Origin: Candidatus Binatus sp.
Lineage (GTDB): Bacteria > Desulfobacterota > Binatia > Binatales > Binataceae
Direction: 5' to 3'
NCBI RefSeq assembly: GCF_030646925.1
Contig: NZ_JAUSKL010000122.1
Coordinates: 1,365-65,364, forward strand
DNA length: 64,000 nucleotides
The notes under the pieces are model-generated. The model searched no databases, had not been told where the DNA came from, and was given only the letters and a program-made list of their open reading frames with translations. Positions 6,949 to 57,700 of the stretch are shown here, piece by piece; positions within the stretch are counted from its first letter, which is position 1; each line of letters begins with the position of its first letter. The position numbers and the translations under genes are program-made.

Positions 6949-9013
6949 GCACGACCTCCCTCGACCGATCGACATCGTAGTCGGCGACGCCGCAAAACGC
7001 ATCATCGGTCGCGGTAGTCGCGGCGCTCGCGAGGACTTTCCTCGGCTCATCGCGAACGATACATCTCTCGGCATCGGAATCGATCGCAAAATTCTGCGCC
7101 TGCTGGCGGCGCTCGCACTGATGTTGTGTGGTTTGTCGGGTTGCGGACGGAGCGCGCCGCCTACGCAAAACAATCTGCTTTACAATGGCAACCTGGCGCG
7201 CGGCAGCGGCGACCGTCCCGCCGATTGGTACGCCATCACTTCAAAACGAGACCTGAGCGCGTTTTCGTGGACGCGATCGCCCGACGGCGCCAGCGCGCTC
7301 GAGCTTGCTCATTCCGGACCGAATTACTCGAGCTGGCATCAGCGCCTGATGCTTGCGCCGGGAACTTATCGCGTCAGCGCCGAGGCGCGCATCGAAGGCG
7401 CAACTTCCGGCGGCGGCGCGACAATCGCGGTCGAAGGCGTCGATGGATCTCAATTGACGTCGATTCCGCTGCATCGTTCGAGTGGGTGGGAACAGATTTC
7501 GATCGTGCTCAATGAAGATCGATGGGGAGCGACCACCGAGATCCTCTGCCAGCTCGGTGCGCCGACGAATCCCGACACTGGCCGCGCGTGGTTCCGCGAT
7601 CTCAAAGTTATGCCAATCGTAAATCCAGGCAGCGAAGAATTGCTCGCCGCACAAGTGCATCCGGAGATCCCGTGGCGCGACGATGGCGGCCCGGCGCGCG
7701 CAGGCGGCGCGATTTGCGGGATCGCGCTGTATGGCTTGCTGGCGTGGGCGCTCGTAGCGATTTGGCGACCGCCGCTGGCGACCGGCCGCAACGCCGCGAC
7801 GCTCGCGATCGCCGCGATGCTCGCGATCACCGCGGTCAAATTCGCCGCGCTGTTCCACTTTACCGGCTACTTCTGGGACATCTGGTCGAAGACGAATCGC
7901 GCCTTGCTCGCGGCGGAACTCGGCCCTTCGCGAATCTACGATCCCGGCCTGCCGATCGACGCTTATCCGCCGGGCTCGCTCTATGTCCTGTGGCTTTCCG
8001 GATCGATTGGCAGGATGCTCGAGCCCAGCGCCGATGGCTTTCGCATCATCGTCGAGACGCCGCCGCTGATTGCCGACTTCCTGATCGGGCTAACGCTCTA
8101 CTTCGCGACGTGGCGCGACGGACGCACGCTCGCTGCGTTTATCGCGATGCTGATGTTCGCGCTGAATCCGGCGCTGATCTACGACACCACGGTGTGGGGT
8201 CAGAGCGATTCGATCGTCGCGCTGCCGATGATCGCCGCGACTGTGCTGATCCTCGCCGGCCGCTACCGCCTTGGATGGATTGCCGCGGCGATTGCGATTC
8301 TCGCCAAGCCGCAGGCGCTCGCGACGGTGCCGATACTCGGACTCTGGACGTTGTTCAGCGCGGGCATCGCGGAAACTGCGGTATGCGTCGTTGCGTTCGG
8401 CGCAACCGTCGTGCTCGGAATCTTGCCGTTCCAGTTGGGGCATCCGTGGAACTGGACTCTCAACGTGTACCAGGACCTGAGCACGCGATACAGCGCGGCT
8501 TCGGTCGGCGCGTTTAATTTTCACGCGTTGCTCGGCGGGATCGAGGAGTCGGATACCGACTTGGTGTTCGGCGTATCGTATCGCACGCTGGGCTTTTCGC
8601 TGACGTTCGCGGTCTATGCGCTAACGGCGTGGATGATTTGGCGTGCGCGATCGGCGTCAGCGGCGATACTCGCGATCTTCGTCACACTGCTGGGGTTTTT
8701 TCTGTTCACGCCGCGGATGCACGAGCGGTATCTCTACTATCCGCTGGTGTTTATCACGTTGATTGCGCTCGAAAAGCGGTTTCTGACTTTGGTATTTGCG
8801 GCTTTGACCGGGACGCTTCTATTCAACCTCATCTACATGAAGCATCTGACCGACACCTCGACGTATTTTGCGGATGAACCGACCTGGCCGATTCTCACGG
8901 CGTCTGCGATCAATCTGGCGGTATTCGTCGCGGTCGCGGGCTACGCTTTTCTGCGGACGCGCGACGCAGCGGGGCAGGGCGGCGACTCGATCGATTTCAC
9001 TCGAAGCGTCTGA
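6947..9013 (+). CDS. membrane glycosyltransferase-like protein: lipobox, jelly-roll (CBM-like) domain and GT-C-type polytopic domain
   Basis: Track ORF 6806..9013. RKILRLLAALALMLCGLSGC looks like a lipoprotein signal. A beta-rich roughly 170-aa domain follows. The multi-TM domain has ALG6/PMT-like loops (IDAYPPGSLYVLW, WGQSDSI). The start is uncertain: candidates are ATG 6947, ATG 7121, or a non-canonical codon near 7079. Confidence 0.6.
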   Translation: MHDLPRPIDIVVGDAAKRIIGRGSRGAREDFPRLIANDTSLGIGIDRKILRLLAALALMLCGLSGCGRSAPPTQNNLLYNGNLARGSGDRPADWYAITSKRDLSAFSWTRSPDGASALELAHSGPNYSSWHQRLMLAPGTYRVSAEARIEGATSGGGATIAVEGVDGSQLTSIPLHRSSGWEQISIVLNEDRWGATTEILCQLGAPTNPDTGRAWFRDLKVMPIVNPGSEELLAAQVHPEIPWRDDGGPARAGGAICGIALYGLLAWALVAIWRPPLATGRNAATLAIAAMLAITAVKFAALFHFTGYFWDIWSKTNRALLAAELGPSRIYDPGLPIDAYPPGSLYVLWLSGSIGRMLEPSADGFRIIVETPPLIADFLIGLTLYFATWRDGRTLAAFIAMLMFALNPALIYDTTVWGQSDSIVALPMIAATVLILAGRYRLGWIAAAIAILAKPQALATVPILGLWTLFSAGIAETAVCVVAFGATVVLGILPFQLGHPWNWTLNVYQDLSTRYSAASVGAFNFHALLGGIEESDTDLVFGVSYRTLGFSLTFAVYALTAWMIWRARSASAAILAIFVTLLGFFLFTPRMHERYLYYPLVFITLIALEKRFLTLVFAALTGTLLFNLIYMKHLTDTSTYFADEPTWPILTASAINLAVFVAVAGYAFLRTRDAAGQGGDSIDFTRSV

Positions 9014-26998: not shown

Positions 26999-27059
26999 TG
27001 CGATGCAGCGTTTTCTGCGATCGCTACAATGCTACATCCGCCCCGTCGCCGTCGAGCAC
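26999..27059. repeat. 61-bp direct repeat, copy 1 (immediately upstream of the Trx-fusion start; contains a hairpin)
   Basis: tgcgatgcagcgttttctgcgatcgctacaatgctacatccgccccgtcgccgtcgagcac; 2 mismatches to the copy at 29958-30018. Confidence 0.85.
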
Positions 27060-27060
27060 T

Positions 27061-28839
27061 TCACATTGCTGTGTCGTCCGAGGCTTTCACGATTTCGAGG
27101 GCGAAGGGTGCGCGAACCGATTTCTTGATCGCGGCGATCAGCACGGCCCTCTTGATCGGCTTGCTGAGGTGCACGTCGACCCCGACCTCAAGTGCCAGTC
27201 GGACATCCTCCTCCACCGCCGAGGCGGTAAGGGCGAAGATCGGCACCCGGGGCAGGCCGCGTTCCCGCTCCCAATCGCGAATCGTGCGGGTGGCCTCTAG
27301 CCCGTCCATCACCGGCATCTGTACATCCATGAGCACCAGATCGTAATTTCCAGCCTTCACCATGGTGACAGCGATCGCGCCATTTTCGGCGTCGTCCAGC
27401 CGATAACCCCGGTCCTTGAGGTAGGCGTGTATCAGCATACGATTGTCCTGCGAGTCGTCGGCCAGAAGGATATTCAGGTTAATAGCCGATGGTGTATTCG
27501 GAGCAACGGCCTGGGTCGCGGCGAATTCGGCGGTCTGCCCGGGTTCGGTGTTGAGACGGTCGGGACGAGCCGTATGATTGGCCATCGCCGTCCCGATCGC
27601 CGCGAACAGTTCGGTGCGGCGAACCGGTTTCACCAGGTATGCGTCGAGTCCCAACTCATGAGCGCGCGTAACCTGGAGCTGGAGGTCGTCCGACGACAGC
27701 ATCAGCACCGTCAAACCTCGATCCGGTCGCGCGTTGACCCGTTCAGCAACCTCAAATCCATCCATCCCGGGCATTCGGCAGTCGAGCAACATCAGCTGGT
27801 ACGGAGTCCCGCTTGCCCTGGCACGCTCGATTTGTTCGAGCGCGGTTGGCCCGTTGTCGGCTTCATCAACCTCCGCACCGCGAATCGAGAGCATCTCGCG
27901 CAGGATGAGCCGATTGGTGAAATTGTCGTCAACCACCAGTACGCGAACGCCGTTCAGCATCACGGTTGGGGTCGGGTTTCGTTCGACGGGGGCCTGCGGT
28001 TGAACCTGGAAGTGCGCGGTAAAATGAAAGATGCTCCCGCGCCCCAACTCGCTCTCGCCCCAGGCGCGACCCCCCATCAGCGCCGCCAGGCGTCGCACGA
28101 TCGTGAGCCCGAGCCCGCTCCCGCCGTACTGGCGCGTGATCGAAGAGTCCGCCTGGGTGAAAACGGAGAAGACCTCGTCGAGTTTGTCCTTTGCTATTCC
28201 GATGCCGGTGTCCGCTACCGAGAAATGAAGATGGCCGGGACCGGCCGACTCATGCTCAAGCTCGACGGTGAGCAGCACCTGACCATGCTCCGTGAATTTG
28301 ACCGAGTTGCCGATCAGATTGAGCAGGATCTGTCGGAGACGCAACGGATCGCCGATCAGTCCGATCGGGACATTGGGCATCACCTGTGCCAGCATCTCGA
28401 GTCCCTTTTGCTGCGCGCGAACGGCTAGGGTCTCGACCGCACCATCGACTACGCTTTCGAGATCGAAGCCGGCCTCTTCGAGCAACAGTCGGCCGCTCTC
28501 AATCCGTGCGAGGTCGAGGATTCCATTAATCAGGTCCAACAGCGCCGCGCCATTGTGGGTCATTATCTCGAGATATTTTTTCTGCTCGGGGTTGAGCGGG
28601 TTTTCTTCGAGCAATTCCGCCATCCCCAGAATCGCATTCATGGGAGTGCGAATCTCGTGCGACATACTCGACAGAAATTCGGATTTGGCTTTGGACGCCG
28701 CCAGCGCCGCCGCAAGCGCTCCCTCGATCCGCTCCGACTGCTCAGTCACGGTGCGTTCTTCAGCCTCGAGCAACTCCTCCAAGGCGTGAACGCGCGATTC
28801 GAGCTGACGAAGGTAGCTTTGGGCCCCATCCTCAGGCAT
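27061..28839 (-). CDS. hybrid histidine kinase (coiled coil - HisKA - HATPase - REC - REC) with no recognisable sensor domain
   Basis: H-box [19 protein letters not shown]-boxes [10 protein letters not shown], two receivers (VLVVDDN...[11 protein letters not shown] and ILLADDS...[12 protein letters not shown]). Confidence 0.85.
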
Positions 28840-28884: not shown

Positions 28885-29622
28885 TTACCCGGCGAAGATC
28901 GGTCCTTCAACGAAGGGCAGAATAGCCAGTTTCACGTTGAGCGCTACCGTTCGGAACATCTCGGCGGTCGACGCTGGGATCGGCACTTTTGCGAACATGA
29001 TCACGGCAAAAAAGTTTCCCTCGGGCAATACTCCGCCGAAACCTAGGACGGACTCGACATGATTCGGTACCACGAAATCCTTTTGGGCCGGAATGTATAG
29101 ACTGTCCTTCGCGGGTTCAACATAAAACACGTTGTATGTTTTTCGGTCCATCTCTTTGATGATTTCGGGCTTCGGCTCCAGGAGGATATTCACTTCGAGA
29201 CCGAATTGCCTGACCAACTGGGCGATCATCGGAACTTGTTCAAGCGCGTGCAGGCTCGGCAGCGGAATTGCTCGGTGGTGGCGTGACTCTTGAGGATGAT
29301 TCCACTCCGGTCGATCGCCGGCGGTGCCGAGCAGCGTTAAGCACTTGACTGCAGACCCCAACGAAACGCCGGGCATCATCGAACGGCTAAACTCCTGCAA
29401 CTGCGGCCCGAGGTCGCCGTAAGGATGCGTCTTGAAGAATCGTACCAGAACACAACAGCGTTGACCCGAGTCGGAATAACCAAGCCGTTCATAGAGATAG
29501 CGGACAATCCCGACTGCGGCCTGCTCCATGCTCTTTGATTCCGAACCAAATCGCCGCAACTCGGCGCCGCAGCGGGTCATATCAGCAAGCGTGAATCGCT
29601 TCAGATCATACATCTCAGACAT
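28885..29622 (-). CDS. uncharacterised 245-aa soluble protein, putative input partner of the kinase
   Basis: Clean ORF 46 nt upstream of the kinase. No family recognised. Confidence 0.5.
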   Translation of the reverse strand: MSEMYDLKRFTLADMTRCGAELRRFGSESKSMEQAAVGIVRYLYERLGYSDSGQRCCVLVRFFKTHPYGDLGPQLQEFSRSMMPGVSLGSAVKCLTLLGTAGDRPEWNHPQESRHHRAIPLPSLHALEQVPMIAQLVRQFGLEVNILLEPKPEIIKEMDRKTYNVFYVEPAKDSLYIPAQKDFVVPNHVESVLGFGGVLPEGNFFAVIMFAKVPIPASTAEMFRTVALNVKLAILPFVEGPIFAG

Positions 29623-29957: not shown

Positions 29958-30018
29958 CTGCGATGCAGCGTTTTCTGCGATCGCTACAACGCTACATCCG
30001 CCACGTCGCCGTCGAGCA
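29958..30018. repeat. 61-bp direct repeat, copy 2
   Basis: tgcgatgcagcgttttctgcgatcgctacaacgctacatccgccacgtcgccgtcgagcac. Confidence 0.85.
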
Positions 30019-30211
30019 CCGCGGCTCTGGGCTCATCTTCAAGGACTACGAGTGAGCGTCGCTTACGGAAATCAATCCGGATCGCGTTCGAACTTCGCGA
30101 ATTCCGCATTTACCCGCATGCTTTCCTTGCGGACCTTCATCGACGCTCGTTTGAGGCGTGCCGCTCTTGCCCGGCGAATGCCCTCAGCCTTGGAGATCCT
30201 TCGCGCCATGA

Positions 30212-42954: not shown

Positions 42955-43090
42955 CGTGTCATTTCGAGCGCAGCGAGAAATCCCGGATCCGGGTTTCACG
43001 CCTCGTCGCAAGGCTCACTCGGGATGACACGGAAACGCTCCGCTCCACTTCGTCATCTTGAGCGGAGGCCGCCGGAGTCAAAAGACCTCG
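42955..43090. repeat. REP/MITE-like palindromic element, copy 1 (inverted relative to copies 2 and 3)
   Basis: gtgtcatttcgagcgcagcgagaaatcccggatccggg...ctcactcgggatgacac hairpin, plus a gcggaggccgccggagtcaaaag unit. Confidence 0.7.
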
Positions 43091-44116: not shown

Positions 44117-45436
44117 ATGAGCCTCGACGCGAAAGCTGATTCCTTCAAAACGCGGCGCAAGCATTTCATGGAGCGCATCGCAGCCGGCGCAACCGCGATC
44201 CTGCCGAGCGCGCCGGTCGCGATCCGTTCCGGCGACGTCGAATTCATCTATCGGCAGGACAGCGATTTTTACTACCTGACGGGTTTTGCCGAGCCCGAGT
44301 CGGTCGCGGTTTTTTCACCGGGGCATCCCGACGGCGAATTCGTGCTGTTCGTGCGGCCGCGCGATCGCGAGCGCGAAACGTGGACCGGCCGGCGCGCGGG
44401 AATCGAAGGCGCGATGATCGATCACGGCGCCGACAAGGCGTATACGATCGATGAACTCGAAAAAATCCTGCCGCGCTATCTGGAAAAGAGCGAGCGTGTG
44501 CACTATCCGCTCGGGCTGAACGAAAAGTTCGACGAGCGCGTGCTCAAGATGGTCCGCTGGGCGCAGGCGATGCGCCCGCGGCTCGGCGTCGGGCCGACGG
44601 TGCTGATCGATCCGCGCGACATCATCCACGAAGCGCGGCTGATGAAGGAAGAGGCCGAGATCGCGGCGATGCGCCGTGCGATGGAGATTTCCCGCGAGGC
44701 GCATCGGCAGGCGATGCTGAAAGCGCGCGGCGGGATGAAGGAGTGGCAGATCGAGGCTGAGGTCAACTACGCGTTTCGTTCGCAGGGCGCCGCCGGACCG
44801 AGTTATCCAACGATTATCGCGTCGGGGCCAAACGCGGCGACGCTGCACTATATCCAGAACGATCGCGAGATGCGGACAGGAGAGCTGCTGCTGATCGACG
44901 CGGGCGCCGAATACGATTATTACGCGGCCGATATCACCCGCACTTCACCGATCGGCGCGAAATTCACCCAGTTGCAGCGCGACTTGTATCAAGTGGTGCT
45001 CGATGCGCAGCTTAAAGCGATCGACGTGATCAAACCGGGCGCGCGCTTTGACGACCCACATAATGTTGCGCTGCGCGTGCTGGTCGATGGGATGCGCGGA
45101 CTCGGGATGTTGCAGGGTTCCGCCGACGAGATCCTCGAAAGCGCCAGCTACCGGCGCTTTTATATGCATCGCACGAGTCACTGGCTCGGCATGGACGTGC
45201 ACGACGTGGGACTTTACCGCGTCGGCGGCGCGTCGCGAGTGCTCGAGCCGGGGATGGTTCTCACAGTAGAGCCGGGGCTGTATATCGATCGCGACGACGA
45301 CACGGTGCCGGAGAGTTTTCGCGGCATCGGCATCCGAATCGAGGACGACATCCTGGTGACGGCGAACGGGCACGAAGTGATGACTGCCGCGACGCCCAAG
45401 ACGATCGCGGACGTCGAGGCGCTCACCGCCGGGTGA
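44117..45436 (+). CDS. pepP: Xaa-Pro aminopeptidase (M24B)
   Basis: YRQDSDFYYLTGF N-domain; M24 metal ligands in the context LIDAGAEYDYYAADITRT ... HWLGMDVHD. Confidence 0.85.
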   Translation: MSLDAKADSFKTRRKHFMERIAAGATAILPSAPVAIRSGDVEFIYRQDSDFYYLTGFAEPESVAVFSPGHPDGEFVLFVRPRDRERETWTGRRAGIEGAMIDHGADKAYTIDELEKILPRYLEKSERVHYPLGLNEKFDERVLKMVRWAQAMRPRLGVGPTVLIDPRDIIHEARLMKEEAEIAAMRRAMEISREAHRQAMLKARGGMKEWQIEAEVNYAFRSQGAAGPSYPTIIASGPNAATLHYIQNDREMRTGELLLIDAGAEYDYYAADITRTSPIGAKFTQLQRDLYQVVLDAQLKAIDVIKPGARFDDPHNVALRVLVDGMRGLGMLQGSADEILESASYRRFYMHRTSHWLGMDVHDVGLYRVGGASRVLEPGMVLTVEPGLYIDRDDDTVPESFRGIGIRIEDDILVTANGHEVMTAATPKTIADVEALTAG

Positions 45437-45467
45437 GTAATTTGCCTTAGGTATAACAGGCGTCAGG

Positions 45468-45556
45468 AGCCGTTCCGTGTCATCCCGAGCGAGCCCGGCG
45501 ACGAGGGAACCCAGATTCGAGATCCTTCGACTCCGGCAGCCTCCGCTCGGCAGTCG
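45468..45556. repeat. REP/MITE-like element, copy 2
   Basis: ccgtgtcatcccgagcgagcccggcgacgagggaaccc ... gatccttcgactccggcagcc. Confidence 0.65.
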
Positions 45557-45794
45557 AGGGCAATCACTGCGGGCTGAACGAAGCTTTTCGCGCGCGGAAA
45601 TGAGAGCGCGCTTGCCGTCAGCGGGCGACCTAGGCGCCGTCGATCACCAGCGGATGCCCCGTCACGAACGACGCCGCATCGGACAGCAGCCAGAGCACGC
45701 CCTCCGCGATTTCCTCCGGCTTGCCCATTCGGCCTACCGGCTCGCCCAGGGTGAGATCCTGTTCGCTGAATCCCTGCGTGTCGAGCAGCCGCTC
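45557..45794. repeat. 238-bp direct repeat, left copy (61 bp of spacer plus the last 177 bp of the SDR gene)
   Basis: Identical to 48026-48263 except at 45631, 45664 and 45777 (3 mismatches counted). Confidence 0.95.
45618..45794 (-). pseudogene. duplicated 3' fragment of the SDR gene carrying a TGG-to-TAG change
   Basis: The left repeat copy reads GA*VAR* where the intact gene reads GAWVAR*. The mismatch is at 45631. Confidence 0.85.
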
Positions 45795-45918
45795 AGATCG
45801 GTCAACTGTCCTAAGTATCTTGCCAATCCTTTGTTCAGGGCGTGATTAGGCGGCAGACGCGATCAATGATGGGATACCGCCCCCGCCTTTCACGGGCCCT
45901 GTCAGACTGCGTTTTGGG

Positions 45919-46890
45919 CTATACCCGAGGGCGTAGCGCTAACCTGCGCCGAACAATCAAGCCACGAAGCAGCGACTCTCGCGTTGGCTCCGTGGATAGT
46001 GATCTGAGTTTGGGGTCGTTGAGACCCTCGTACAGGTTCGAGTTTCTGTACTCAGAGTACACGGCCTCTTTTAGGCTTTCATTCCGAGTCAGCCAGAGCT
46101 CGCCGTCTTTCAGCCCTCGTGGCAGGGCGCAGCAGTAGAGTAAGTGGTGTTCGGCAAACCTTTCGACCACACCGAGAACCAATGGGGCGTTCTCGGTCAA
46201 ATTGGTGATCTCAATCATCGCCGCTTCCGCACCTGCCGCCTTCATCTGCTTGGCGGTATCTTCGAGGAAGCCCTCGACGCCTCTGACGCCATTGCTGACG
46301 TCGACCGGTATCTCGTTTCTGCTCGCGCGCTCGCTTCTCAAGGCGTGGATAAGACCAACGACCGAGGCTGCTCCAGCGATTCTGAAGGCACTATCACTGA
46401 TTCCCCCGACTAAACCTGCAGCCACCAGGACGACAGCGAAAGAGGATACTACTTCGAACAACACGCGAGCGACGGAAGCCATGACGGTCTTTGAGCCCTT
46501 GATGTCCGCGAAGAGCGCAGTGACCGCCTTACGCTCGCCTTCGATAAGAGGTGAAGCGTCTAGCTCTGCTCGCATTTCCTGTGCGTCCTTTGGACCAAAA
46601 ATAATTTCCTTTGCGCGGGCCTGTTTCATGAGTTCGGTAGCAGTCTGTTCCGGTGCAATGCGAACGCCGGAGGCTGATTCTGGCGGCGACGACGTGGCGT
46701 TTACGGCACCCGCACCATTAGTGAGTGGAGCGCCGCACTTGCCACAGAAGTCGGATGTCGGCGGGTTTTTCGCCTTACATTTTGCGCAGAGTTTGGTGAG
46801 CGCTTTCCCGCACCGCGCGCAGAAACTATTGGTGGAGGGATTATTCGTCCCGCATTTTGGGCAGCGCATCGATGTACCCCCGACAACCAA
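45919..46890 (-). CDS. chimeric protein: double zinc ribbon, first strand of a class III cyclase domain, two hydrophobic segments, unknown C-terminal domain
   Basis: CPKCG..CARCG..CAKCK..CGKCG, then EGERKAVTALFADIKGS (start of a cyclase homology domain). After that the sequence is unrelated to cyclases. Confidence 0.55.
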   Translation of the reverse strand: MVVGGTSMRCPKCGTNNPSTNSFCARCGKALTKLCAKCKAKNPPTSDFCGKCGAPLTNGAGAVNATSSPPESASGVRIAPEQTATELMKQARAKEIIFGPKDAQEMRAELDASPLIEGERKAVTALFADIKGSKTVMASVARVLFEVVSSFAVVLVAAGLVGGISDSAFRIAGAASVVGLIHALRSERASRNEIPVDVSNGVRGVEGFLEDTAKQMKAAGAEAAMIEITNLTENAPLVLGVVERFAEHHLLYCCALPRGLKDGELWLTRNESLKEAVYSEYRNSNLYEGLNDPKLRSLSTEPTRESLLRGLIVRRRLALRPRV

Positions 46891-46929
46891 CCGACCAGTC
46901 CCTCTTGTATCGCCCAGTGTCAGAAATGG

Positions 46930-47523
46930 TTAGCACGTCGAGTATCTTTGGTGAAGAGCGATCAAAGGAGCGTAGTCTTGCTCGTCCGCCGCTCTAATCG
47001 CGGACAAGTATTGCGTCCGAGCCGCAGTTTGATTCGAGATATCGTTCTCCAACCAATCGATCGGAGCCGAACCGGATCGCTTGATTAAAATGTTGGCTAG
47101 AAGGCGTGACCATCGCCCATTGCCATTGTTAAAGGGGTGAATAAGCACGGCACGATGATGGAGTCGGGCTGCCTGCTCGATTAGGGGATAGCTCTTGTGT
47201 TTGTGCCATTCGGTCAAATCATCGAAGAGATCTTTTAGACGCGAGTCAATCTCATGGGGCGGAGCACCGATATTCGTCTGGGTTATGCGTCGTTTACCTG
47301 CCCATGCCCATACATCCCCGAACATTTCGTGGTGGAGCCGGTAAGCCCACTCGCGCGTAAAGGGCGCCATCCTCTTCGATGGAGCAGTTGCCAGGTACTT
47401 CAGTGTGGCTTTGCTAATGTTCCGCGCTTCTGCGATGAAAAGCTGCTCGCGGGTTTGTATGTGCTCCGGAATCAGCCCGTCTGAGTCGAACGGCGTGGCG
47501 CCCGCGGGTTCGTCACGCATCAA
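46930..47523 (-). CDS. Fic/DOC family protein ('mobile mystery protein B' type)
   Basis: Fic motif HPFNNGNGRWSR. ATGA-type overlap with the upstream HTH gene. Confidence 0.85.
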   Translation of the reverse strand: MMRDEPAGATPFDSDGLIPEHIQTREQLFIAEARNISKATLKYLATAPSKRMAPFTREWAYRLHHEMFGDVWAWAGKRRITQTNIGAPPHEIDSRLKDLFDDLTEWHKHKSYPLIEQAARLHHRAVLIHPFNNGNGRWSRLLANILIKRSGSAPIDWLENDISNQTAARTQYLSAIRAADEQDYAPLIALHQRYSTC

Positions 47524-47921
47524 TTTGACCAGAGGCGTCTCCTCGACCCTGCTGCCAATTTGTCGGCGATCTCTTCCCTAATCTCTAGAAGAGCTTCTTT
47601 AGGAACCGCCTGTGCTTCCAGGGCAGACGTTCCCTGAACCATCGAAGCCAATCTTGTCGCTTTCTGCTCCGCTTGTTCTCTGCGAACCAGACGAGCCGAT
47701 ACGATCTCCCTCGGCATCGGAAACTCAACCCTGAGCGCATGGGCGATGGACAACACGGTGTTGAGAGTCGCATTCGGCTCATTGCCGGAGAGCACGCGTT
47801 GGACAGTTCGCATTCCCAAGCCGGAGCGCTGAGCGAGAATTTTCATGCTCATTCCGATTTCCTTGCGGCGACCGTCGAGATGTCTAAACAGAGCTAAAGA
47901 AAACTTGTTTTGATTTGCCAT
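47520..47921 (-). CDS. XRE-family HTH protein ('mobile mystery protein A' type)
   Basis: MSMKILAQRSGLGMRTVQRVLSG HTH. The start could be 47921, 47927 or 47936. Confidence 0.75.
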   Translation of the reverse strand: MANQNKFSLALFRHLDGRRKEIGMSMKILAQRSGLGMRTVQRVLSGNEPNATLNTVLSIAHALRVEFPMPREIVSARLVRREQAEQKATRLASMVQGTSALEAQAVPKEALLEIREEIADKLAAGSRRRLWSN

Positions 47922-47950
47922 GTTCATAATTACCACTCAACTCAATGGTT

Positions 47951-47980
47951 ATTTTATGCCAGATATAGCTAATATATCAA
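47951..47980 (-). promoter_or_regulatory. sigma-70-like promoter of the cassette operon
   Basis: On the minus strand: TTGATA (47980-47975), an 18-nt spacer, then TAAAAT (47956-47951), upstream of the HTH gene start. Confidence 0.4.
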
Positions 47981-47988
47981 GTGATAAT

Positions 47989-48004
47989 ACGCCAAATTTG
48001 GCGT
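47989..48004. promoter_or_regulatory. perfect 16-bp palindrome ACGCCAAATTTGGCGT at the cassette edge (operator or recombination-site candidate)
   Basis: Read directly. Lies 8 nt upstream of the -35 hexamer and 21 nt from the right repeat. Confidence 0.4.
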
Positions 48005-48025
48005 AGAAGCCGAGCCCGCGGCAAC

Positions 48026-48263
48026 AGGGCAATCACTGCGGGCTGAACGAAGCTTTTCGCGCGCGGAAATGAGAGCGCGCTTGCCGTCAGCGGGCGACCC
48101 AGGCGCCGTCGATCACCAGCGGATGCCCCGTCGCGAACGACGCCGCATCGGACAGCAGCCAGAGCACGCCCTCCGCGATTTCCTCCGGCTTGCCCATTCG
48201 GCCTACCGGCTCGCCCAGGGTGAGATCCTGTTCGCTGAATCCCTGTGTGTCGAGCAGCCGCTC
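48026..48263. repeat. 238-bp direct repeat, right copy (part of the intact SDR gene)
   Basis: See the left copy; constant offset of 2469 bp. Confidence 0.95.
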
Positions 48264-48848
48264 GACCATCGGCGTCCTGATTACGCCGGGGCATACGCAG
48301 TTAACGCGGATTTTTTTGGTGGCGAATTCCAGCGCCGCGGTGCGCGTGAGTTGAATGACGCCGCCCTTCGAGGCGTTGTAGGCGGGCAATCCTTCGAAGC
48401 CGACCAGCCCGGCGATCGACGCGGTATTGACGATACTACCGCCGCCCTGCTTGAGCATCTGCGGGATCTCGTACTTCATGCACAGCCAGACGCCTTTCAG
48501 GTTGATCGCGATAACTCGATCGAACACTTCCTCCGTGCAATCGACGGTGTTGGCGACTTTGCCTTCGATGCCGGCGTTGTTGAAGGCACAGTCGATACGG
48601 CCATAGCGCTTGATCGTCTCGGCGACCATCGCCTCGGCCTCTCGCGCGATCGAAACGTCAGCGCCGACGAAGCTGGCGTCACCGCCGGCCTCTTTGATCA
48701 TCCTGACGGTGCGCTCGCCGCCTTCGGGAATGTAGTCGGCGATCATGACCTTGGCTCCCTCACGCGCGAGCTTGAGCGCGGTAGCGCGGCCGATTCCCGA
48801 GCCGCCGCCGGTCACCAACGCGATTTTTCCCTGTAAGAGTCCAGCCAT
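48087..48848 (-). CDS. short-chain dehydrogenase/reductase
   Basis: TGGGSGIG Rossmann motif; YNASK catalytic motif. Confidence 0.85.
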
Positions 48849-48912
48849 GATCCGCACCTCCCGCGAAGTTTCGGCGCGCAGTTGGACGGGCGCGCGATTT
48901 ATTTCTGATTCG

Positions 48913-57477: not shown

Positions 57478-57700
57478 AGGAAGGGATCCTTCGACTCCGG
57501 CAGCGGACAAGAGAGTGTGCGGAGCGGTTTCCGTGTCATCCCGAGCGAGCGTAGCGACGAGGGATCCCGGATCCGGGATTTCTCGCTGCGCTCAGAACAA
57601 CAGAGGCGAGGATGATCGAGGGGGGACGGCGCGGGTGATAGAAGAAGGAACAGGAGCCGGGATTCCTCGCGCGGCGGCCACGCGCGGGAATGACAGAAGT
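57478..57700. repeat. cluster of REP/MITE-like palindromic elements (copy 3 plus a second hairpin)
   Basis: ggatccttcgactccggcagc ... ccgtgtcatcccgagcgagcgtagcgacgagggatcccggatccgggatttctcgctgcgctcag, then gggattcctcgcgcggcggccacgcgcgggaatgac. Confidence 0.7.

Follow-up and report, generated by a model that had tools for sequence, protein, structure and literature searches.

How does a small operon that carries no gene for its own movement come to lie between two nearly identical copies of the end of a neighbouring gene? The question is raised by a 64-kb stretch of contig NZ_JAUSKL010000122.1 from Candidatus Binatus sp. (assembly GCF_030646925.1, positions 1,365 to 65,364 of the forward strand), which we call the window and whose own coordinates we use throughout. 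The source is a metagenome-assembled genome (MAG) and the contig is 129.6 kb long. In the window, a helix-turn-helix (HTH) gene and a Fic gene, along with some further DNA, lie between direct repeats of the 3' end of a gene for an SDR-family oxidoreductase. The locus was singled out in an earlier note made from the sequence alone, which we refer to as the original prediction. Our reading, which we consider moderately probable, is that the 238-nt duplication was left by a single homologous exchange within the SDR 3' end together with one illegitimate joint, and that the cassette is a recently acquired HTH-Fic operon with donor debris. Most simply, then, the duplication is a known kind of scar, the gene family is also known, and the locus is not a new kind of mobile element.

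The duplicated end of the SDR gene

The insertion consists of four features.

45557-45794, minus strand: left repeat copy, made up of a detached SDR 3' fragment (45618-45794, with TAG at 45630-45632) and 61 nt of spacer; contiguous with the pepP flank
45795-48025, minus strand: unique inserted DNA of 2231 nt, with no terminal inverted repeats; absent from the relative L089
48026-48263, minus strand: right repeat copy, which forms the 3' end of the intact SDR gene and the spacer downstream of it
48087-48857 (ATG start at 48848), minus strand: intact SDR-family oxidoreductase gene (NF004818, 347 bits; P0121 is 100% identical)

A repeat search and a base-by-base comparison showed that 45557-45794 and 48026-48263 form a pair of 238-nt direct repeats offset by 2469, with exactly three mismatches, at 45631 (T/C), 45664 (A/G) and 45777 (C/T), just as the original prediction had described them. 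The identity breaks off sharply just beyond either end, and the pair is the longest repeat of the 64-kb window. The content of the copies was also described correctly: each holds the last 177 nt of the SDR gene and 61 nt of downstream spacer, and in the left copy the difference at 45631 turns TGG into TAG, four codons ahead of the SDR stop. The difference at 45664 gives Val in the left copy and Ala in the right, and the one at 45777 is synonymous. The pepP flank runs into the left copy, while the intact SDR gene, whose product also matches PF13561/PF00106, runs into the right one.

The DNA between the copies has a GC content of 0.49-0.58 (in intervals wholly inside it), against 0.60-0.65 in the flanks, and its ORFs (open reading frames) have a third-position GC of 0.57-0.65, against 0.79-0.80 in pepP, SDR and MaoC. 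The insert is therefore compositionally foreign, which points to horizontally acquired DNA. Its ends show no inverted repeats, with an end-to-end alignment score of 8 compared to a shuffle mean of 8.3. Domain profile searches of the three insert ORFs found HTH, Fic and zinc-ribbon domains only and no recombinase, transposase or integrase domain, so the cassette does lack a recombinase, as first noted. There is no tRNA in the 64-kb window and no RNA family in the region by Rfam.

The unoccupied site and its surroundings

The flanks of the insertion carry the following features.

44117-45436, plus strand: pepP (Xaa-Pro aminopeptidase; PF00557, PF05195), the conserved left flank, syntenic in all Binatia relatives
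45466-45523, no strand assigned: dispersed intergenic repeat resembling repetitive extragenic palindromes (REP-like), with copies at 43001-43041 (inverted) and 57527-57579; missing here in L089
48913-49794, minus strand: MaoC-like dehydratase, the conserved right flank

We obtained relatives of the locus by scanning species-representative genomes with pepP and then mapping the neighbouring proteins. The gene order in the Binatia relatives is SMP30 - pepP -> <- MaoC - thioesterase - DsbA, mostly without an SDR gene in between. Both flanks in the window are syntenic with these relatives, with core genes right up to the insert. The closest relative found, L089 (GCA_038217945.1), has about 86% nucleotide identity across the locus and the order MaoC - mazE/pemK - SDR (91% amino acid identity) - pepP. 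It has no cassette, and 14 nt separate its SDR stop from the pepP stop, so L089 represents the site in its unoccupied state. Together with the third-position GC values, this bears out the insertion of foreign DNA that the original prediction had read as a recent event.

The segment 45432-45606 (about 175 nt) is a lineage-specific spacer with no counterpart in L089, and it spans both the REP-like repeat and the outer 50 nt of the duplicated segment. Since these outer 50 nt are present in both repeat copies, the DNA that served as the source of the second copy should come from the same lineage. One alignment to L089 that ran past the repeat end was rejected as spurious, as BLAST assigns that L089 segment to pepP. 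The REP-like family (GTGTCATCCCGAGCGAGC...GACGAGGGA) occurs in both orientations at 42957-43041, 45466-45523 and 57527-57602, with one copy in the pepP-SDR spacer.

The gap between pepP and MaoC varies in content among relatives, and we therefore regard it as a small integration hotspot in Binatia. It holds HTH-Fic in the window, a mazE(AbrB-like)/pemK toxin-antitoxin pair in L089 (L089 2232-2809; the mazEF type), and in L009 (L009 9438-12001) a 3.1-kb insert with a 535-amino-acid transporter-like ORF and a 276-amino-acid ORF. By this comparison the gap has gained toxin-antitoxin genes more than once. In L086-L088 we also observed SDR genes that are 86% identical in nucleotides (91% in amino acids) to the window SDR (48091-48881) in a wholly different neighbourhood (FMO, esterase, peptidase S15), indicating that the position of the SDR gene is not fixed among related organisms.

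The HTH-Fic operon

The insert carries the following features.

46930-47520, minus strand: Fic-domain protein (mobile mystery protein B) with the motif HPFNNGNGRWSR (TIGR02613, PF02661, PADLOC PDC-S04)
47520-47936, minus strand: XRE-type HTH protein (PF01381), putative antitoxin/repressor and divergent relative of mobile mystery protein A, with a TSALEAQ motif (Glu107) in its C-terminal part
47951-47980, minus strand: promoter-like TTGATA-18-TAAAAT upstream of the HTH gene (TTGACA...TAAAGC in L001)
47988-48005, no strand assigned: perfect 18-nt palindrome TACGCCAAATTTGGCGTA, probable operator, at the upstream limit of the unit common to L001
45919-46890, minus strand: chimeric zinc-ribbon ORF (PF12773/PF13240 at residues 7-59), where NCBI annotates only a 236-amino-acid hypothetical protein (P0241)
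46471-46890, minus strand: 5' fragment of a double-zinc-ribbon / class III adenylate cyclase / AAA_16 gene, whose homology stops just past FADIKGS
45919-46482, minus strand: orphan C-terminal part of the chimeric ORF, with coding-like GC periodicity

As predicted, three minus-strand genes lie between the repeats, and the HTH stop overlaps the Fic start (TGATG, 47518-47522). The Fic protein had been named 'mobile mystery protein B', and it is one: it scores 168.4 bits against TIGR02613, passing the cutoff of 124.4, with residues 9-190 aligned on profile positions 1-184 of 186. It also matches PF02661 (2.7e-14) and PDLC04839, the PADLOC model for candidate defence system PDC-S04 (5.4e-28), where membership is by protein model match. 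The solved structures nearest to it are FICD and VbhT. The canonical Fic motif HxFx(D/E)GNGRxxR and the class I partner motif (S/T)xxxE(G/N) are defined in PMC3667792. The window protein departs from the first of these, since HPFNNGNGRWSR has Asn at the position of Asp/Glu. This Asn and the pattern HPF-NGNGRW-R are invariant in 40 Fic relatives.

The name 'mobile mystery protein A' for the HTH protein did not hold up in the same way. TIGR02612 is its best NCBIfam match, but the score of 37.6 bits is under the cutoff of 122.6, with an alignment over 24-137 of its 138 residues. The HTH partners of the whole window clade (window, L001, L002, L004, L092, L093, L099 and L119) score 30-58 bits on this model. 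Because the match is full-length though below the cutoff, and is shared by the clade, we assign the HTH protein to a divergent branch of the A family and not to the family by its curated test. The pair is otherwise like mobile mystery A/B (TIGR02612/TIGR02613), being a two-gene operon of an XRE-HTH gene followed by a small Fic gene with overlapping stop and start, with the Fic protein above its cutoff and plasmids common in the family (441 plasmid records). It is unlike them in the low-scoring HTH partner, whereas the partners of more distant Fic relatives (L120, L127, L151) exceed the TIGR02612 cutoff. A close relative is found on about 8 of 2.9 million viral contigs, and spread by phage looks minor.

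The HTH gene is directly upstream of the Fic gene, an arrangement shared by 72 of 83 related loci. When 73 partners were aligned, VQGTSALEAQ (HTH residues 100-111) proved the most conserved segment among the A proteins: the Glu is found in 72/73, [ST] at -4 in 54/73, Gln at +2 in 68/73, and G/N after the Glu in 3/73. The TSALEAQ segment thus resembles the class I Fic inhibitory helix (S/T)xxxE(G/N) without the G/N, and we take it to be a family-specific variant. The module shares with the class I Fic toxin-antitoxin modules (VbhT/VbhA, FicT/FicA) a partner immediately upstream, the conserved [ST]xxxE, and a Fic fold related to VbhT and FICD. It is unlike them in that the partner is fused to a DNA-binding HTH and has no G/N after the Glu, and in that the Fic motif of the window family is HPFxNGNGRWSR, with Asn replacing Asp/Glu.

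The promoter-like TTGATA-18-TAAAAT was found where the original prediction put it; the palindrome next to it is perfect over 18 nt and not 16, and it is the probable operator. The HTH protein probably represses the operon at this palindrome beside the promoter, and its conserved [ST]xxLExQ helix probably blocks the active site of a presumably toxic Fic, in the manner of the class I Fic antitoxins.

The third gene had been read as a zinc-ribbon chimera, and it proved to be truncated cyclase homology joined to an orphan tail. Its start has 45-61% identity to P0242-P0300, proteins carrying PF00211 and PF13191. The tblastn matches end at points from 46492 to 46369, FADIKGS opens the cyclase domain, and the domain is continued in no frame. 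For the remaining 187 residues there is no homologue among 1.84 billion representative proteins besides the MAG's own annotation, and the orphan part resembles no fetched locus, nor the rest of the window. More broadly, the left 1.1 kb of the insert has no match in the 249 fetched loci or elsewhere in the window.

The idea of a three-gene unit, as originally proposed, fares less well. The zinc-ribbon chimera adjoins HTH-Fic at no other locus. The nearest relative of the cassette, L001 from a wood metagenome (Fic 82% identical in amino acids), shares with the window only the stretch from the palindrome to the Fic stop (48005-46935), at 81% nucleotide identity, and there the cassette sits behind another gene, without a flanking repeat. 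By these comparisons only the operator, HTH and Fic recur, and the trio is not a conserved unit. With the shared part limited to the operon, and with truncated cyclase homology and an orphan tail beside it, the insert is best described as a mosaic of an HTH-Fic operon and donor debris. The one conserved, functional-looking part would be a two-gene Fic toxin-antitoxin-like (or candidate defence) operon, and the zinc-ribbon/cyclase 5' stump fused to orphan sequence would have been carried along. A likeness between the region upstream of the L001 cassette and the SDR end was dismissed as spurious, as the C-terminal translation of that gene is unrelated to the SDR C-terminus.

Bracketing repeats at related loci

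We fetched 80 metagenomic loci with the Fic profile and looked for direct repeats bracketing the operon; 34 loci were testable. Under a scripted criterion of a repeat of at least 30 nt within 600 nt of the operon, two of the 34 loci had such repeats. A 36-nt pair in L101 fell just outside the approximated search interval, and we counted it as well, giving 3/34. The other 31 have no bracketing repeat, so a duplicated host 3' end is not a hallmark of the family, and the answer to the original prediction's question of whether the operon is always flanked by one is no.

In L101, the bracketing repeats are similar terminator hairpins on either side of the operon. The L119 locus is of a different kind. 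An intact rpoC is immediately followed by a co-oriented HTH-Fic pair; after this come a truncated AAA_21 ATPase gene and then rpoC 3' fragments. A comparison of L119 2894-3968 with 7305-7733 shows rpoC fragments of 130 nt (96%), 38 nt (97%) and 282 nt (83%), with an internal gap of 608 nt, and the repeats include REP-like hairpins with compensatory changes. The polarity of the duplication is as in the window, and L119 is an independent assembly. Control DNA had one long-repeat pair with 1-6 kb spacing in 0.96 Mb, and none of 5800 random 1.2-kb segments was bracketed. Given how rare long repeats are in control DNA, the L119 parallel is unlikely to be due to chance, and it is the single independent case of the same anatomy.

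The third locus with bracketing repeats is L151 (5098-5206 and 6582-6649), where direct repeats of 42 nt (93%) and 29 nt (97%) hug a canonical mobile mystery A/B pair beside leuD, and the downstream copy lacks 38 nt. In the IMG/VR contigs L173 (3051-5261, 702-2912) and L174 (4491-6701), a mobile mystery pair lies in an array of 118-nt repeats that are 775 and 1318 nt apart; the repeats seem to correspond to small paralogous genes on the other strand.

Origin of the insertion

The arrangement in the window has what is expected of an integration scar: a duplicated host segment brackets foreign DNA, one copy is continuous with the intact locus, the other is continuous with the flank, and L089 is unoccupied. 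Under the explanation we favour, the cassette would have no mobility machinery of its own and would have entered the variable gap between the convergent pepP and MaoC/SDR genes through host recombination. The donor would be a conspecific strain with the cassette 61 nt behind the same SDR gene, and the homologous exchange would have involved the SDR 3' end that the incoming DNA brought with it. In that case, the boundary 48025|48026 would be native to the donor and the joint 45794|45795 (GAGCAGCCGCTC|GACCATCGG) would be the illegitimate one. Two routes could lead there: a circularised fragment may have entered by a single crossover (Campbell-type), or a linear fragment may have been anchored in the SDR gene while its far end joined inside the recipient SDR, that is, by homology-facilitated illegitimate recombination (HFIR). 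Both would give the same product, an intact SDR gene, the cassette, and a displaced 238-nt 3' fragment running into the native flank.

The original prediction held that the mobilisation mechanism was not established. We think that it is not a mystery in kind, as there are precedents for both routes. In E. coli, single crossovers with circular DNA gave duplications of 109-950 bp of the homologous lacZ end, the dominant class recovered (PMC3240628), and HFIR has already been proposed for toxin/immunity arrays (PMC5361080). As in Campbell-type and HFIR integration, a duplicated homologous segment brackets foreign DNA in the window, its size is in the 109-950 bp range, and there is no dedicated recombinase; unlike in those cases, the event took place naturally, in an uncultured lineage. 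The orphan 3' ends and immunity arrays of type VI secretion (T6SS), Rhs and contact-dependent growth inhibition (CDI) systems are similar in that a new toxin module settles behind a conserved gene and pushes the former 3' end downstream, where it persists as a remnant (PMC5361080). They differ in that the anchor in the window is an unrelated housekeeping-type gene (SDR here, rpoC in L119) and not a toxin gene. Insertion sequences (IS), miniature inverted-repeat transposable elements (MITEs) and transposons are a poor match, since terminal inverted repeats are absent from the window insert and its duplication, at 238 nt, is not short.

Several points weigh against this reading. We did not find the donor arrangement, in which the cassette would lie behind SDR with no left copy. 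The sequence comes from a MAG, and the evidence is at the level of the assembly. A comparison with outgroups indicates that Val at 45664, as in the left copy, is ancestral and that TGG, as in the right copy, is ancestral, with the third site uninformative; with one derived change in each copy, the donor-derived copy is not identifiable from the differences, and they do not polarise the event. On the functional side, class I-type inhibition and AMPylation are extrapolations, given a Fic protein without the canonical acidic residue and a partner family in which G/N follows the Glu in so few members. The literature has no experiment on the mobile mystery A/B family; the four papers naming it do no more than list it.

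It is unlikely, though a MAG makes the concern a natural one, that the arrangement is an assembly artefact or a population mixture, in which an empty chromosome (pepP flank-X-SDR, X being the repeated segment) and separate X-cassette DNA (a 2469-nt circle or the locus of another strain) were joined by threading the loop once. Such a mixture would hold the same four junctions, and the copies are identical over stretches of up to 112 nt, which exceeds many assembly k-mers. We found no second assembly of the locus: homology searches listed one contig each for the 100% matches P0001 and P0121, which are the MAG's own Fic and SDR proteins with ATG starts, and exact-protein look-ups of the versions with TTG/GTG starts had no hit. 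Even so, all four junctions must be physically real, and the copies differ at three sites. A45664 lies within 131 nt of the cassette junction and 109 nt of the pepP flank junction, so single 150-nt reads would have had to support the assembled phase. The independent assembly L119 has the same architecture at another gene.

A local history in steps would leave an identical end product: a simple insertion, in the spacer or inside SDR, followed later by unequal exchange, tandem duplication or repair with a wild-type allele that made the second 238-nt copy. The derived changes in both copies are compatible with slow divergence after an internal duplication of this kind. This account calls for two or more rare events although a single one is enough, and we saw no intermediate arrangement; we consider it distinctly unlikely.

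It is very unlikely that the 238-nt repeats hold the attL and attR of an integrase encoded elsewhere, which would make the insert a cis-mobilisable element (CIME), that is, a CIME-like remnant or satellite of an island targeting the SDR 3' end. Integrase-borne islands and CIMEs do insert at gene 3' ends, often bring a replacement 3' end that restores the gene, and are flanked by direct repeats; here too the intact gene is preserved, with no recombinase between the repeats. However, site-specific exchange does not yield 238 nt at 98.7% identity with sharp ends, and an att core is much shorter and less uniform than such a repeat. The insert and its surroundings encode no integrase and no tRNA, and no island lies in either flank, where synteny with relatives extends up to the insert. 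The nearest HTH-Fic relative is behind a different gene without a repeat, and most family loci (the 31 of 34 above) have no bracketing repeats at all.

That HTH, Fic and the zinc-ribbon protein form a new self-mobilising element that catalyses insertion with a long target duplication is extremely improbable and largely refuted: the historical name 'mobile mystery proteins', the occurrence on plasmids and the bracketing repeats at a minority of loci speak for it, but conservation does not extend to the trio, the Fic fold is one that modifies proteins, repeats are missing from most loci, and those that do occur are heterogeneous (hairpins of terminator or REP type in L101 and L119, and small paralogous genes in L173).

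Implications

If the recombination scar is the right explanation, the window provides a natural example from the uncultured Binatota of a small toxin-antitoxin/defence operon planted in a chromosome without a mobility gene, where host recombination used the end of a neighbouring gene as its anchor and left a diagnostic duplicated 3' fragment. Should the L119 parallel be general, one could screen metagenomes for duplicated gene ends as a sign that a cassette was acquired through recombination.

A broader conjecture, which is tentative and rather unlikely, is that HTH-Fic cassettes spread as 'homology hitch-hikers' in no need of an integrase, and that cassettes of other toxin-antitoxin or defence systems may do so too. 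A cassette behind a conserved gene would take the 3' end of that gene along as a portable anchor, recombination by RecA between the direct repeats would release it as a circle (here of 2469 nt), the circle would re-enter any genome having the same gene by a single crossover, and the toxin would penalise cells that lose the cassette. The support so far consists of the matching polarity and anatomy around rpoC in L119, the tight repeats in L151, and the rarity of such repeats in control DNA. The remaining interest of the locus lies in this possible recurrent, integrase-free and anchor-carrying spread, and in the A protein, whose near-universal Glu-containing motif makes a class I-like inhibition mechanism directly testable.

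Other repeats in the window

A second pair of direct repeats in the window, 61 nt long and 97% identical (26999-27059 and 29959-30019, spacing 2960), brackets a hybrid histidine kinase gene (27061-28839, minus strand) and a 245-amino-acid ORF (28885-29622, minus strand), and the first copy begins right after the kinase stop. This pair may mark another duplication-flanked insertion. Further repeats in the window are a 117-nt direct pair (15307-15423/17075-17191, 84%), a 77-nt direct pair (9105-9181/9484-9560, 87%) and a 257-nt inverted repeat (28463-28719/53846-54102, 72%).

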